IMG/VR virus record: IMGVR_UViG_2924810865_000002
Span: 1,799-65,798 of that record
Direction: 5' to 3' (one strand)
Source: a virus
Taxonomy: Duplodnaviria > Caudoviricetes
Length of the DNA stretch: 64,000 bases
Under the pieces are notes generated by a model. That model was not told the origin of the DNA, searched no databases, and worked only from the letters and a program-made list of their open reading frames with translations. The stretch's first letter is position 1. Every line of letters starts with the position of its first letter. Below are positions 28,800 to 57,891 of the stretch, piece after piece. A program made the position numbers and the translations under genes.

Positions 28800-29087
28800 T
28801 TGACAAGCTCCTCATTCAAGCGTAGGATGTTTCTTACAGGGTCTCAAAAGCTCTTATAACGAACGGTAATTCACCCCGTCAGCGTGATTTTTTTGTGCCT
28901 GCAATTTAGTGGACTAAGCCTTACTATTACTTAGCTCATTACAGGCGGTCAAAAAGTACAAATTATTTTCAATGGTCGAGAGTGCGAGGAATACAACACC
29001 GCAAGGGAATAACTCCGCTCGATTCGTTACGAGTTTTGAGCTCTCGACCGCCCAATTATTGGGACTTCCCTCAAAAGGAATAACGAC
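28800..29087 (+). promoter_or_regulatory. Antirepressor promoter and structured ash/c4-like leader
   Basis: TTGACA-17-TAGGAT; complementary blocks 28840-28863 and 29023-29049. Confidence 0.65.
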
Positions 29088-48974: not shown

Positions 48975-49052
48975 CTACTTAAAGTAGCGTTTTACTATTT
49001 AAAATAGCATTGTTGCAAGTTTATTTTCGTTTTAAAATTCTACCTAAGGTAG
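48975..49052. promoter_or_regulatory. OR operators (three)
   Basis: CTAC-TTAAA-GTAG (48975), CTAT-TTAAA-ATAG (48995), CTAC-CTAAG-GTAG (49040). Confidence 0.8.
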
Positions 49053-49076: not shown

Positions 49077-49967
49077 ATGAGTACAGAAAATACACTTGCT
49101 ACAAGATTAAAAGCAGTGATGGATGAAAAAGGCGTAGGAATTCCAGAACTCAGTAAAGCACTTGGAATCACTTATGAAATGGTGCGTAGATACGTAATGG
49201 GTGTAGCAAAACCTAGAGAGAAAAAGTTAAAACTAATCGCTGATTATCTTGGCGTATCTCCAGCCTGGTTAGAATATGGAGAGGGATCAAGCCTTGCTGT
49301 GGTAAAACCAGAAGTACACCTGCTGGATAACATCAAATTCTTAATGCGTAAAAAAGGCATCTCACTCCCACTTTTGGCAGAGCGAACCGAGATTGAAGAA
49401 AGCCGCTTGTTAGAGCTGCTAAACTCCGACAACGTGGAAAATGAAAAACTCTTTTTAAGCACGCTTGAGCAATTATTTCTCGTGACTGCAGACCGTTTGC
49501 TTTATGACGACCTCAGCCAAAACCCGAAAGGCATGAACTTCCTGAAAATGCGTTCCGTACCCGTGAACCGTGTACCTATTCGCGGCTACGCCCAATTAGG
49601 TGCTGAAGGGCATTGGGTCGATTTAGAATACCCCGTAGGCGAAGGCGATGGCTACATCTGGTGGCCAAGCCGTGATGAAGATGTGTATGCCCTAAAATGC
49701 CAGGGCGATTCGATGACCCCACGCATTAAGCACGGTGAATACGTGATTATTGAACCAAATCACGAAATTAAAAATGGGGATGAAGTGCTTGTCGTTACCG
49801 ATGAAGACCAAGTGATGGTTAAAATCTACGCCTACGAACAAGGCGGTAGACTTACGCTCTATTCCGTGAATGAAAACCACGAGCCGATCAACCTTTACCA
49901 AGAAAATATCCGCAAAATGCACTATATGGCAGGCATTGCAAAAGAAAGCTTGGTGTTGGATTTGTAG
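49077..49967 (+). CDS. cI: CI repressor with S24 peptidase domain and two HTH-like segments
   Basis: N-terminal XRE HTH; VPIRGYAQLG, GDSMTP serine motif, VMVK lysine motif. Confidence 0.92.
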   Translation: MSTENTLATRLKAVMDEKGVGIPELSKALGITYEMVRRYVMGVAKPREKKLKLIADYLGVSPAWLEYGEGSSLAVVKPEVHLLDNIKFLMRKKGISLPLLAERTEIEESRLLELLNSDNVENEKLFLSTLEQLFLVTADRLLYDDLSQNPKGMNFLKMRSVPVNRVPIRGYAQLGAEGHWVDLEYPVGEGDGYIWWPSRDEDVYALKCQGDSMTPRIKHGEYVIIEPNHEIKNGDEVLVVTDEDQVMVKIYAYEQGGRLTLYSVNENHEPINLYQENIRKMHYMAGIAKESLVLDL

Positions 49968-51413: not shown

Positions 51414-51490
51414 ACCGCCCTCGTAGCGGTTTTCTTTTGCTTGCAATAATACAAAGTAAGAGTATAATGCAAAGCATAAGGATAAAACCA

Positions 51491-51802
51491 ATGTACACCA
51501 TCATCGAACACGAAAAATTCAAGCAGAAAGCTGAACAAATTTGGACAACTGAAGAACGTCTTGAATTTTTCACCTACCTTGCGCAAAACCCACTAGCAGG
51601 CGATGTCATCCCGCACGCTCAAGGGCTGCGTAAAATTCGCTGGCAAGCTAATGGCAAAGGCAAGCGTGGTGGTGTACGAATAATTTACTTCAACTTACTT
51701 AATGATGGTTTAATCGTTGCGCTTGATATTTATGCCAAAAACGAAAAAGAAAACCTAAGCAACCAAGAAATTAAACAACTTAAGGGGCAGAAAAATGGAT
51801 AA
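51491..51802 (+). CDS. RelE/HigB2-type toxin
   Basis: NPLAGDVIPHAQGLRKIRW...GKRGGVRIIYF; promoter TTGCAA-16-TATAAT upstream. Confidence 0.9.
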   Translation: MYTIIEHEKFKQKAEQIWTTEERLEFFTYLAQNPLAGDVIPHAQGLRKIRWQANGKGKRGGVRIIYFNLLNDGLIVALDIYAKNEKENLSNQEIKQLKGQKNG

Positions 51803-52160
51803 CCTCTCACAAAAAATTGAACAAGCCACCAAGGACTGGAACATTGAAGCTATTGTTAAAGCGGTGATAGTAGACGATCCTGATATGGCAGAACACGCTG
51901 AAGATTTCCGTGAAACCTTGGTGCAAATGAAAAACGGAGACTATAAAAACTGGCGAACTACTCAAATTCCAGTCTCGCCCATTGTTGAAACTCGCCAAAA
52001 AGCCAACCTCTCACAGCCCAAGTTTGCAGAAAAGCTCGGTATTTCGGTTAATACCTTGAGATCGTGGGAGCAAGGCTTACGAAAACCAAGCGGTGCAGCC
52101 AAAACCCTATTAGACCTTCTCTCCCGCAAACCTGAACTGATTAACGAATTACACGCCTAA
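51795..52160 (+). CDS. HigA2-type HTH antitoxin
   Basis: LSQPKFAEKLGISVNTLRSWEQGLRKPSGAAKTLL. Confidence 0.9.
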   Translation: MDNLSQKIEQATKDWNIEAIVKAVIVDDPDMAEHAEDFRETLVQMKNGDYKNWRTTQIPVSPIVETRQKANLSQPKFAEKLGISVNTLRSWEQGLRKPSGAAKTLLDLLSRKPELINELHA

Positions 52161-52299
52161 TTTCTCTATTCAGCCCTCCCCGAGGGCTTTTTTATCTCCC
52201 CGATATCAATGTCGTCCACATCTTCCTACCCCCGAAAAAATGTAAGCGGTCAAATTCCGCCAATTTTTTGCAAAATAAAACCCTCCGAAGAGGGCTCAA

Positions 52300-52590
52300 T
52301 TAGGCGTGGTTAGCTTGCTTTACCTCAAAAGTTAAATTCAACGCCCGCATCACTTTTAATACGGTTGAAAAGGTTGGATTCCCCTTGCCTGAAAAGGCTT
52401 TGTATAATCCCTCACGGCTCACACCTGCTTCTCTGGCAATCTGGCTCATATTACGTGCTTTCGCAATATCACCTAAAGCAGACAAGATTAAATCCACATC
52501 ATCCTCTTTCAGCACCTCATTTAAATAAAGCTGAATTTCCTCTTCTGTTCTTAAATGTTCCGCCATTTCAAAATCTTGCAATTCAACCAT
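52300..52590 (-). CDS. Addiction module antidote protein
   Basis: FEMAEHL...ALGDIAKARNMSQIAREAGVSREGLYKAFSGKGNPTFSTVLKV. Confidence 0.92.
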   Translation of the reverse strand: MVELQDFEMAEHLRTEEEIQLYLNEVLKEDDVDLILSALGDIAKARNMSQIAREAGVSREGLYKAFSGKGNPTFSTVLKVMRALNLTFEVKQANHA

Positions 52591-52591
52591 T

Positions 52592-52888
52592 TTACACTCC
52601 TAATTCTTTCGCTAAGGCTTTCGCCTTTTTAATATCATTCTCTTGACTGGCTTTATCGCCCGCACAAAGTAAAATTACAATCACGCCATTCTGGTTTTTC
52701 AAATAAACCCGATAACCTTTGCCTTCCGTAATTCGTAATTCTGATACCCCTTCGCCCACAGGCTTTACATCGCCAAAATTCCCCATCTGCAACCGCTTAA
52801 TTCGAGTTTGAATTTTTGCCCTTGCTCGCAAGTCTTTTAAATTATCAAGCCATTGTTTAAAGATGGTGGTCGATTTTATTTGAATCAT
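52592..52888 (-). CDS. Addiction module killer protein (RelE/ParE superfamily)
   Basis: GNFGDVKPVGEGVSELRI...GYRVY...ILLCAGDKASQENDI; TATAAT flanked by TAGGCT/AGCCTA inverted repeat upstream. Confidence 0.92.
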   Translation of the reverse strand: MIQIKSTTIFKQWLDNLKDLRARAKIQTRIKRLQMGNFGDVKPVGEGVSELRITEGKGYRVYLKNQNGVIVILLCAGDKASQENDIKKAKALAKELGV

Positions 52889-53102
52889 AATGCCTCCGAA
52901 TAGGCTTATTATAGCCTAATATTGTGATTGTGCGAACTATAATTCACAACTTGATCTTTCTGTATTCTTTCGTTTAAATCCGTCTAACCAAAATCCTTGC
53001 TTATTTCCCTTCAAATCTTGCTTAACTCGTCTAAACCGCTCAAAAAACCATCAATCAAACCATCTCGCTTAAAATTTATTTCCTTAAAAATCAAACGTTT
53101 AT

Positions 53103-53118
53103 CTACTTTAAGTAGAAT
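53103..53118 (+). promoter_or_regulatory. OL operator overlapping the pL -10
   Basis: CTACTTTAAGTAGAAT, identical over 16 bp to the reverse complement of the cro-proximal OR site. Confidence 0.8.
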
Positions 53119-53280
53119 GTACCCATCAAAACAAAACAGCCTGATAACAAAAATCAGGCGTTATCTAAAACAGCTTTAACGGAGAGCCAAACCCTTAGCC
53201 ATCAATGCGGAAACATTCGCAACGACCGCCAAGCGTTGAAGCAAACGGAAGATGAAAGCTGTTTTAAATAATCAACTTAA

Positions 53281-53292
53281 TGCTCTTTAACA
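53281..53292 (+). promoter_or_regulatory. boxA antitermination element
   Basis: Perfect TGCTCTTTAACA consensus in the pL leader. Confidence 0.8.
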
Positions 53293-53566
53293 ATTTAAAC
53301 ACGCATATCGCCAAACCAACGATGAAAGTAACGCTCGGCAGACTGATTGAGTTAGCGTAAGGTCAATTCGCACAATCAGCCAACGGGTTCTAAGTAGCAA
53401 CGGCAAAGACCGCCTACTGCCTCAGCCTGCGAGAAACGGAGAACGTGCAACGATATGCCGCGTAGGATTACAACTTACAGCAGCCGTCTTGGACGAGCGA
53501 AGCACAATAAGACCTATGCAAAACACCGCCCCAAGCCGCAGGGCACGAAATAATGCGGCATCTTTA

Positions 53567-53651
53567 GGCTCTAGGTTTCACCCTTTGCAGAAAAGGGTAA
53601 GTCCAGGTTGATATAGCATAAGACTGGGTGCAACTCCCACTAGAGCCACCA
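53567..53651 (+). ncRNA. tRNA-like element (85 nt), not a canonical tRNA
   Basis: GGCTCTA/TAGAGCC acceptor stem, ACCA end, TGGG-TGCAACT-CCCA T-arm; internal arms non-canonical. Confidence 0.6.
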
Positions 53652-53735
53652 TTTAAAACAGCATACGTAAGACGTGTGTTTTTTTAATGTTTGGCACGCA
53701 GTGTGCTGTTTTAAATGGTAAACAAGGAGCAACTT

Positions 53736-53966
53736 ATGATAGGTTACGAAGATTACAACGCATTAGGCTTACCGACTGAATATGCAATGCAAGACCGCAT
53801 TGAGCAAATGGAAAATAAAGTGCTTAAAAAGCTGAAATCATCAGGTTTAGACATCTTAGCCGACAAGCTGATAGATACAGAAGTGTGGCATAACGCCATT
53901 GATGCGATGATGAAAAGGAAAGCAAATGAGCCTAAAGCAATGTATTATTTTTCTACTCGCGGTTAA
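53736..53966 (+). CDS. First pL-operon hypothetical protein
   Basis: AAGGAG RBS, ATG at 53736. Confidence 0.7.
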   Translation: MIGYEDYNALGLPTEYAMQDRIEQMENKVLKKLKSSGLDILADKLIDTEVWHNAIDAMMKRKANEPKAMYYFSTRG

Positions 53967-54276: not shown

Positions 54277-54460
54277 AATAAATTCCTGTAATTGTTGAAG
54301 TAAGACACAACAATTATATTCCTTGTTTGAAGTAAGACACAACAAGGCGAGTTTTGCGGTTCTCGTTAAAAAACCGTTTGACAACACCGCTCACATCAGA
54401 TTAAGATACCCCCACTTTCAAGCCGTCTCAAACGGCTTTTTTTGTATCTGAGAGGTAAAA

Positions 54461-55291: not shown

Positions 55292-55618
55292 AAAATAATT
55301 TGACACCCACCGCCCAATCATTTAGGATACCCCCAATTTCAACAGAAAGTCGGGATTGGTCTCCTGAATTGACAAAGAGCGGTGAAAAAGATAGTCGCTC
55401 AAAGCGGCTTTTTTTATAGCCGAAAATCAGTAAATCATACCTTTAAAGGTCGGATCAAATCGATCCCCCCTTCAAAAGTTGTCAATGATGAGCTGAATAG
55501 AAGTCCGAAAGGACGCCGTTCACTCTTTGTCGCGGTAAGACCAATTCTGTTCAGTTCATCACCAATGATTGGTCTCTAGGTGATGAGTTTTAAAAACTTT
55601 GACAAAGAGAAACACAAA

Positions 55619-56233
55619 ATGACAACTTTAACTTTTCAAAACACTACTCTTTCGGTTATCAACCAAAATAATCAAACATTCTTAACAGCAAGCGATTTAG
55701 GCAAAGCATTAGATTATTCTGACGCTGATCGTAGCGTTCGCAGACTTTATACCGCCAATGCAGACGAATTTACCGCAGAAATGACCGCACTTATCGAAAT
55801 GCCTACCGCAGGCGGACTACAAAAAGTGCGTATCTTCTCGCTTCATGGTGCACACCTGATTGCCATGTTCGCTCGTACCAAAGTCGCCAAAGACTTCCGC
55901 AAATGGGTACTCGATATTTTAGATCGTGAAGTTTCGCAAAAAATGAAAGAAATCCAACCGCTTGCAGATGAACCCCTAAACCTACTGGTGCAAGCCTATC
56001 ATTTTCTTTACCAGGCAAGCGACTTACGTACTAAAGTGCAACCAACCTTTATCGGTATAGATATCGACCGCCACTTTGGTAGCCATTACCTCCACAACTT
56101 AGGCAAACCACTCAGCCAATGTATGGAAAACATCCAAGCCTACATTCACGCCAGCGCCGAACGCCTTATGTTCGTACAAGGTATGGCAAGCCTGCTTGAA
56201 ACGCCAACAACTAAAAAAGCAGTATTTAAATAA
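55619..56233 (+). CDS. P22 antirepressor N-terminal / BRO-like protein
   Basis: MTTLTFQNTTL...DEFTAEMT...VRIFSLHGAHLIAMFARTKVAKDFRKWVLDILD. Confidence 0.88.
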   Translation: MTTLTFQNTTLSVINQNNQTFLTASDLGKALDYSDADRSVRRLYTANADEFTAEMTALIEMPTAGGLQKVRIFSLHGAHLIAMFARTKVAKDFRKWVLDILDREVSQKMKEIQPLADEPLNLLVQAYHFLYQASDLRTKVQPTFIGIDIDRHFGSHYLHNLGKPLSQCMENIQAYIHASAERLMFVQGMASLLETPTTKKAVFK

Positions 56234-57046: not shown

Positions 57047-57891
57047 ATGACAAACCAAGTTCAACAAACCAAACCGCAACAAGACAAATTCCCGATTAAA
57101 ACCTTGTTTGAAAGCCCCGCGGTAAAACAAAAACTACAAGACTTGCTTAATAAGAATGCAGCAAGTTTCACAACTAGCGTACTTCAAATTGTGAATAGCA
57201 ACTCAATGCTGCGTAATGCCGATCCGATGAGCGTATTTAACGCCGCTTGTATGGCAGCCACTTTGCAGTTACCGATTCAAAATGGTTTAGGCTTTGCCTA
57301 CATCGTGCCTTATAACGGGCAGGCTCAATTCCAACTAGGCTATAAAGGCTTAATCCAACTGGCACAGCGTTCTGGGCAGTTTAAGCGATTGGTTGCAGTT
57401 CCCGTGTATGAAAAGCAACTTATCGAAGAAGACCCGATCAACGGCTATGTGTTCGACTGGAAACAAAAGCCAGAACCGACTGAAAAGCCAATTGGCTACT
57501 ACGCTTATTTCCAACTGGTTAATAGCTTTACCGGGCGAAGAGTGTGTGGGCAAATAACTTTGAGGCGATGGCGTTGAAAACGGTGATGAAGCTCCTGCTC
57601 TCAAAACAAGCACCATTATCGGTGGAAATGCAACAAGCCCTGTTAGCCGATCAAGCGGTGGTAAAAAGCGTGGAGAATGCAGAATTTGATTACCCTGATA
57701 ATCAAGTGGAAGAAGCGGATTTTGTAGCGTTGAATGTATCGGATGAGCAATTTGAAAACTTCAAACAAACCATTCAAAACAAAGAAACCACGCTCCAAGA
57801 GCTTTGTGATAACGGCTACGAATTCAGCAAAGAACAGTTCCAAATTTTAGAGGCAATGGAAAATGCAGCACCTGTATCAAATGAAAGCTAG
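57047..57891 (+). pseudogene. recT: RecT recombinase with internal deletion and frameshift
   Basis: GLGFAYIVPY...AQFQLGYKGLIQLAQRSGQF, break near 57530, resumes WANNFEAMALKTVMKLLLSKQAPLS. Confidence 0.88.

Follow-up and report, generated by a model that had tools for sequence, protein, structure and literature searches.

What occupies the roughly 600 nt between the early-left promoter of a lambdoid prophage and the first gene of its operon, when no N gene is found there? The question was raised by the window, by which we mean the whole 64,000-nt stretch of viral DNA that was analysed; a first-pass annotation had placed in it a highly structured leader behind OL/pL, and had proposed that this leader could be an RNA-based platform for antitermination or processing, analogous to but different from HK022 put. 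Close relatives of the window were found in Haemophilus parahaemolyticus, H. paraphrohaemolyticus and metagenome-assembled genomes of oral Haemophilus; in H. parahaemolyticus CCUG 3716 (L012) the leader is nearly identical. Its early region was laid out as follows:

48975-49052: divergent OR region with three related palindromes, beside the cI-type repressor gene
49077-49967, + strand: cI-type repressor gene (HTH and peptidase S24), by profile match
Between cI and OL/pL: two unknown genes and two toxin-antitoxin pairs, by gene content
53103-53118, + strand: OL operator palindrome (53103-53115), an exact copy of an OR palindrome, overlapping the pL -10 TAGAAT (53113-53118)
3' of OL/pL, + strand, in this order: a 76-aa ORF, a KilA-N gene, a C4 antisense RNA with a Bro-N antirepressor, recT, an exonuclease gene

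The best of the OR palindromes, CTACTTTAAGTAG at 48975-48987, had one further exact copy only, at 53103-53115, and with this copy overlapping a TAGAAT -10 the OL/pL of the annotation proved to be real. Because genes and operators follow the layout of lambda, 53103-53118 was read as OL/pL and the region beyond it as its leader. The -35 of pL was poor (ATCAAA), and the transcript probably starts at ~53121-53126, just 5' of the conserved CCCATCAAAAC. Operator, -10 and the transcript start CCATCAAAAC were all common to at least nine other Pasteurellaceae prophages, and CCATCAAAAC was kept behind three promoter/operator types, two of them unrelated to that of the window (L001, L011); this sharing, and the retention of the start behind unrelated promoters, support transcription of the + strand from ~53121-53126. 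A single OL operator with no good -35 was present in the window (53076-53118), in L074 and in L077; L010 (700-800) carried three operators and a TTGCAT -35. Judged against L010, the single operator of the window looks like the product of a deletion between identical operator repeats, so that pL may be weak here. The recT gene (57047-57891) was split, probably by a frameshift, in two ORFs that overlap and that each match a portion of the RecT profile, and with its single operator, poor -35 and split recT this copy of the prophage may be partly defective.

Several neighbouring elements were recorded in passing. The toxin-antitoxin pairs (51437-52888) were a RelE-like protein with an MqsA/HTH antitoxin (+ strand) and a Gp49/HigB-like protein with an HI1420-type antidote (- strand). 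Ahead of the KilA-N gene, at 54295-54438, two exact 19-nt direct repeats (54295 and 54327) were followed by a TTGACA-18-TAAGAT promoter-like site and, directly behind it, a strong terminator (54420-54438), a combination that suggests an attenuator or a small RNA; the same region gave a weak isrK-like match. In the other prophage segment of the window, Rfam sRNA-Xcc1 matched at 28974-29057 (66 bits), with a similar match in L002 (3800-3885).

About 30 related leaders were collected by flanking-gene, word and genome searches, and they shared a common plan, consisting of the start, a hairpin, a boxA or near-boxA, variable non-coding modules, a long terminal hairpin, a Shine-Dalgarno (SD) sequence and the first ORF. 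The chain of modules in the window was:

53139-53159, + strand: H0, a small hairpin with a 7-bp stem and 7-nt loop, abutting S1, from the minimum free energy (MFE) fold
53160-53272, + strand: S1, a 113-nt three-tier stem-loop with a 12-bp (17-bp) closing stem, from folding energy (with H0) and covariation
53281-53293, + strand: boxA TGCTCTTTAACAA, 13/13 against the consensus UGCUCUUUAACAA
53294-53524, + strand: cargo A, a GC-rich and A-rich non-coding stretch, from comparison
53535-53559, + strand: M3, a hairpin with a 6-bp stem and a conserved 13-nt loop GGGCACGAAAUAA, from comparison
53567-53651, + strand: tRNA-like cloverleaf with an 8-bp acceptor-like stem, three arms, a T-loop-like UGCAACU and a 3' ACCA (53648-53651), from folding energy
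53648-53719, + strand: long terminal hairpin with a 16-19-bp outer stem and an inner stem, from folding energy and covariation
53724-53966, + strand: SD AAGGAG (53724-53729) and first ORF (ATG at 53736; 76 aa, acidic), from sequence

Whole modules were exchanged between leaders: L002 and L011 had the S1 and boxA of the window with a different (B-type) middle, and in L001 and L080 cargo A was interrupted by 130 nt of inserted sequence and S1 was preceded by two small ORFs. The first ORF matched PHROG 17268 (function unknown), and its relatives, at 75-79% identity, sat behind the same leader. No ORF longer than 40 aa was found in 53180-53715 and no N-like protein in the leader, which agrees with the annotation's statement that an N-like gene of normal size is missing. 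Rfam searches on the leader (gathering thresholds and E up to 10) returned chance-level matches only, ARAGORN called no tRNA gene in the window, blastn of the leader against 50,697 phage records gave no match, and exact-word scans of viral contigs yielded mostly the same two contigs plus chance coding matches (L007, L008).

As a whole, the 616-nt leader folded better than its shuffles (z -3.35), and unusual folding energy was located in three modules only, namely H0 with S1 (z -5.4, 53136-53272), the tRNA-like element (z -2.6) and the terminal hairpin (z -5.2). The cargo A region between them (~235 nt, 53295-53530) was no more structured than shuffles (z +0.4 and +0.6). The several further hairpins that had been described are accordingly, for the middle, unsupported beyond chance. 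Base composition also set the middle apart, with a GC content of 0.53 at 53300-53600 against ~0.38 around it.

The module that recurred most widely was boxA; with few exceptions, the start of the related leaders was followed by a boxA or near-boxA irrespective of the cargo. The annotation had called the boxA perfect; in the window the 13-nt site exactly matched the boxA of Pasteurellaceae rrn leaders, and the exact GCTCTTTAACAA occurred once in the 64 kb, at this position. The 15-mer GCTCTTTAACAATTT was identical to multi-copy sites of the Pasteurellaceae, with 4-6 copies per complete genome, located in rrn leaders (with a long hairpin 5' and ...TGTGTGGGCAC 3') and in 16S-23S spacers after a tRNA. 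Within the phage leader it lay ~160 nt past the predicted start, preceded by H0 and S1, on an ORF-free transcript, and was in this sense promoter-proximal with an upstream hairpin. No boxA or nutR was found in the pR operon, including the position after cro. A boxC-like GU-rich element (UGUGUGGG) was absent after the boxA of the window, which is followed by AAACACGCAUAUCGCC, where the rrn leaders of the family have ...TGTGTGGGCAC. Confinement of boxA to a long ribosome-free leader, without a nutR, fits the protection of an untranslated transcript from Rho and fits a two-site N system less well; with no boxA in the translated pR operon, its role would be tied to the untranslated leader rather than to a general nutL/nutR system. 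A second exact match to boxA, in the H. parahaemolyticus genome, lay inside a gene and was rejected as a further nut site. Prophages of another type, from the same genus and family (L038, L040, L041, L042, L044, L053, L062, L065), had TGCTCTTTAACAATTTGG and a second boxA-like CGCTCTTTA directly after a cro-like gene, in the position of nutR, which indicates that early-operon use of boxA is common in these hosts. The part played by boxA and NusB/E in the assembly of rrn and lambda antitermination complexes is described in the literature (PMC12360218, PMC4807359), and in other contexts boxA can stimulate Rho-dependent termination (PMC12360218). A search of the literature on boxA in Pasteurellaceae prophages and on N-independent lambdoid antitermination returned nothing relevant.

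The presence of an rrn-identical boxA in nearly all related leaders points to antitermination of the rrn type by host Nus factors, that is, by proteins. We reasoned, at a probability of about 0.5, that the region is the untranslated early-left (pL) operon leader of a lambdoid Haemophilus (parahaemolyticus-group) prophage without an N gene, in which boxA/Nus antitermination of the rrn type shields an untranslated RNA array, with processing to follow. In such a leader, boxA on the nascent RNA would recruit host NusB/NusE and with them NusA, NusG and SuhB, and the resulting termination-resistant polymerase would cross ~600 nt of ribosome-free RNA while escaping Rho. The long paired stems and the tRNA-like element would then signal processing or insulation, with RNase III and RNase P the likely enzymes, and stable small RNAs would be separated from the downstream mRNA as in the maturation of rRNA and tRNA operons. 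The freed RNAs (S1, cargo A and the tRNA mimic) would act early after induction or infection. Of the platform proposed at the outset, the processing half fits the covarying stems, the ACCA-bearing tRNA-like element in a slot for tRNAs and the cassettes bounded by hairpins; antitermination by a put-like RNA is not supported, the near-universal element being an rrn boxA.

One close likeness is to the rrn leader itself (boxB-boxA-boxC; NusB/E/A/G, SuhB and S4), with which the leader shares the boxA 15-mer, a long hairpin just 5' of it, and a promoter-proximal place on a long untranslated transcript that bears a tRNA or tRNA-like element and long stems of the processing type. It differs from the rrn leader in belonging to a phage early operon under cI control, in lacking the boxC-like element, and in carrying ~0.4 kb of small modules instead of rRNA, followed by mRNA. 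Sites resembling intrinsic terminators on the + strand, in and after the leader (53660, 54420, 55393, 56256 and 58947), count against the boxA/Nus reading. Complexes of the rrn type mainly counter Rho and are weak against intrinsic terminators; boxA alone may thus not be enough, and a further factor, RNA or protein, may act beside it. Also counted against this reading were the absent boxC, the lack of structure and covariation in cargo A, the dispensability of the tRNA-like element, the possibly defective copy, and the capacity of boxA to favour Rho termination elsewhere (PMC12360218).

Both long stems were found as annotated. In S1, 53166-53177 is the exact reverse complement of 53255-53266, giving the 12-bp closing stem; if one mismatch is allowed, the helix spans 17 positions (53161-53177 with 53255-53271). 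S1 has 37 predicted pairs and conserved internal loops (CAUCAAUG and CAACGACC); 11/37 pairs showed compensatory changes, most of them contributed by L001, in which the inner helices were rewritten and still pair. With the addition of L050-L052, whose S1-like module is found 3' of boxA, the closing stem covaried in 7/18 pairs. The neighbouring H0, which reads as a terminator-like site on the minus strand, had given way in L001 to another hairpin built on the same GCCU...AGGC pattern. At the other end of the leader, 53648-53663 was exactly complementary to 53704-53719, the predicted 16-bp stem, extending to 19 nt at 95%. Among 16 diverse leaders, 93.8% of the cells of this hairpin were paired, compared with 29-51% when the partner was slid; compensatory changes affected 9/16 pairs, and the covariation score was 0.47 against 0.20 in shuffles, a value reached by 0/500 of them. 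The covariation among homologues that had been named as the check on the leader was accordingly present in S1 and in the terminal hairpin. A weak terminator-like hairpin with a U7 tract (53660-53685) lies inside the latter.

The two stems also share a 12-mer, as had been noted: GCTGTTTTAAAT has three exact occurrences (53258, 53705 and the complement of 53651) and one copy with one mismatch (53163), where 1.4 were expected for the whole window. Their length and this shared word make it plausible that they are duplicated RNase III sites. Against the roughly 20 bp or more of near-perfect double-stranded RNA, with compensatory change, by which RNase III stems were judged, the predicted helices measured 17 bp in S1 and 19+7 bp in the terminal hairpin, and on sequence both qualify. 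Pairing of the 3' arm of S1 with the 5' arm of the terminal hairpin, as in the enclosing stems of rRNA, was considered and rejected; in L010 both terminal arms had changed together while S1 was unchanged, which means that each long stem pairs locally and not with the other. An inverted 12-nt match between 52925-52936 and 53367-53378 was judged to be chance (estimate ~0.08 for a region of this size).

The modules between boxA and the terminal hairpin were of unequal standing. Cargo A showed 0 compensatory pairs, its eight near-identical copies mixing compatible and disruptive single changes. It was present in 1/236 Pasteurellaceae species genomes and in most of the metagenome contigs retrieved through the tRNA-like motif, and was confined to the H. 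parahaemolyticus group; the idea of a widespread family was dropped on the count of 1/236. A GCGUGGAAGCCC-like word of the cargo, which we take to be shared with E. coli tmRNA, drew attention to the host tmRNA, a likeness that was rejected because only chance words of 9-11 nt matched the tmRNA of H. parahaemolyticus. Directly after boxA, many other Pasteurellaceae prophage leaders had instead a B-type cargo, a structured RNA motif of ~165 nt (L002 at 2015-2180, L045, L047, L049, L081, L010), in which 9/27 pairs were compensatory and which had no match in Rfam. B-type cargo is thus a real structured RNA, and the cargo slot can hold a functional RNA. Further recurrent cargo types were seen, designated C (L025/L027/L070-L072/L050), E (L023/L069) and F (L051/L052). 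The M3 hairpin was found after both cargo A and cargo B, and its third pair was C-G in the window, U.G in L076 and U-A in L002, L081 and L010.

The tRNA-like domain that the first reading had pointed out took the form of a cloverleaf with an ACCA tail at 53567-53651. Tests of this segment with tRNA models gave no ARAGORN call and no RF00005 match at E up to 10, and its tRNA features were limited to the acceptor-like stem, the T-loop-like arm and the ACCA. In three relatives the same slot held true tRNAs: L049 had a canonical tRNA-Met whose ACCA borders directly on the terminal hairpin, the very junction seen in the window, L046 an odd tRNA together with a tRNA-like element with a canonical T arm, and L050 an Rfam-positive tRNA. 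The element of the window is accordingly the positional equivalent of a tRNA. Its common polymorphisms were G.U-compatible, yet two singletons broke pairs, L077 carried a 12-nt deletion, and L002 lacked the element entirely; the cloverleaf is plausible, short of proven. An acceptor-like stem, a T-like arm and an ACCA are features that RNase P uses, and by analogy the element may be a substrate of this enzyme.

Two known arrangements resemble this element. Like the P1/P7 C4 and P4 CI RNAs, which are cloverleaf-like, cut from a leader and processed by RNase P, it has a closing stem that leads into ACCA and lies within a regulatory leader of a phage; unlike them, it gave no match to the C4 model RF01695 (clan CL00128) even at E up to 10, and no complementary target sites were identified for it. 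The same model matched 55481-55566 (51.9 bits), 1.8 kb downstream in the same operon. This downstream C4 antisense RNA belongs to a P1 immI-like module (55385-56233), in which an Rfam match to AaHKsRNA82 (55385-55462) precedes it and the Bro-N antirepressor gene (55580-56233) directly follows; a promoter-like site lies nearby at 55300. Antiterminated lambdoid operons can also carry tRNA genes, for example upstream of stx in 933W, and the present leaders are similar in having tRNA-type genes in an untranslated leader, real tRNAs in L049, L046 and L050. They differ in that the operon is the early pL operon, not a late one, and in that the element of the window is a mimic which fails tRNA models.

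The exchange of modules admits another explanation, which we consider unlikely, in which the hairpins mark the limits of recombination, stabilise the transcript or insulate exchangeable cassettes (morons) from one another. Cargo A and the tRNA-like element would then be remnants in decay, without a function as RNA. In L002 (2280-2985) and L011 (5930-6640) a TerD-family gene cassette was inserted between the leader and the first ORF, flanked on both sides by hairpins ending in the same linker TTTTAAATGGTAAACA, which suggests that exchange of this cassette takes place at the hairpins, precisely at the repeated linker. The unstructured, non-covarying cargo A, the loss of or damage to the tRNA-like element in some copies, and the damage to the prophage (split recT, single operator) all suit such a mosaic. 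It does not account well for cargo A of independent genome and metagenome copies, which showed scattered substitutions only, without a frame to conserve, nor for a GC content of 0.53 within a genome of 0.38, as in stable RNAs; and the compensatory evolution of S1, M3, the terminal hairpin and B-type cargo is evidence of selection on RNA pairing.

Rather less probable is antitermination of the put type, in which S1, or H0 with S1, would bind the polymerase directly from the nascent transcript, with no protein factors and boxA as an auxiliary. HK022 offers a precedent, being an N-less lambdoid phage with RNA structures in the leader just past its early promoter, and the window has two adjacent stem-loops just past the start, with conserved internal loops and strong covariation. 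S1-like modules also occur at varied places in other leaders, as expected of a portable cis element; the intrinsic terminators downstream call for more than rrn-type antitermination; and no N gene was found. Yet put acts without Nus factors or boxA, whereas boxA is the conserved core here and S1 is optional, many C-type leaders (L025, L027, L070-L072) having only a short hairpin and boxA. HK022 has both putL and putR, and no copy of S1 was present in the pR operon of the window. Rfam holds no put model, and Rfam on the HK022 immunity region found nothing.

We give slightly less credence again to a conventional N-type system, with a small, fast-evolving and unrecognised N binding a hairpin near boxA and the leader acting as an oversized nutL. 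The lambda nutL/N leader with its RNase III site does resemble the present one in position (pL to the first gene), in its boxA and in a large hairpin 5' of the first ribosome-binding site; the window has no N gene, no lambda-type boxB next to boxA and no nutR partner, and its leader is ~3x longer and modular. Being short and highly diverse, N proteins are beyond the reach of profiles, so that an unrecognisable N could escape the searches for it (Pfam, PHROGs and an arginine-rich-motif scan of the operon strands), which found no antiterminator match and no arginine-rich-motif ORF. A 32-aa Arg-rich ORF within cargo A (53455-53553) was considered as a mini-N and rejected on account of a stop in L080, of non-synonymous changes, and of the insertion in L001 and L080 that takes the place of its C-terminus. 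The first ORF, moreover, is acidic. In A- and B-type leaders alike, boxA is followed, at about the spacing known from lambda, by a small hairpin (53307-53323 in the window, 13 nt downstream); its loop there is a 9-nt CCAAACCAA, against the boxB with a GNRA-like pentaloop within ~10 nt of boxA that characterises lambda nut sites. A boxB-like arm with a GNR(N)A-like pentaloop GCAGA was present at 53580-53598, but ~290 nt separate it from boxA, and L002 lacks it. In other prophages of the genus a boxA does follow cro, in the nutR position, as an N system would use; the pR operon of this phage has none.

It is very improbable that the leader is instead a brake on the pL operon, with boxA-bound Nus factors promoting Rho termination or blocking translation as in suhB. 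In favour of a brake, boxA is able to stimulate Rho termination in certain settings (PMC12360218), shows complementarity, amounting to 8 pairs of the MFE fold, with the SD region of the first ORF, and is followed by a terminator-like hairpin with a U7 tract ahead of that ORF. Against it, 440 nt separate boxA from the SD, L011 and L002 have lost the pairing through an intervening cassette, and the architecture follows that of rrn leaders, in which boxA antiterminates.

Returning to boxA/Nus protection of a processed RNA array, a broader and more tentative form of this reading extends it to the family: it is possible that lambdoid prophages of the Pasteurellaceae carry an rrn-mimicking, boxA-antiterminated pL "RNA operon" of interchangeable processed small RNAs, in which host Nus factors alone replace N. 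Its products, on the same tentative footing, would include S1, several families of cargo (the covarying B-type among them) and either tRNAs or mimics of tRNAs with a terminal ACCA, and they might act within the first minutes of the lytic cycle as decoys or regulators, for example against tRNA-targeting defences.

The RNA modules of the leader are undescribed and absent from Rfam, and S1, M3, the terminal hairpin and B-type cargo are conserved by compensatory evolution. If the boxA/Nus reading is true, these prophages would add a third way for lambdoid phages to achieve early antitermination to the two that use the N protein and the put RNA, one in which the phage copies the boxA signal of host rRNA and needs no factor of its own; the leader would also offer a natural system for studying how Nus factors protect non-coding transcripts. 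The modules, which would be transcribed from the promoter that fires earliest on induction and which include tRNA mimics where relatives keep tRNAs, are candidate phage RNAs for host takeover or counter-defence in oral and respiratory Haemophilus.
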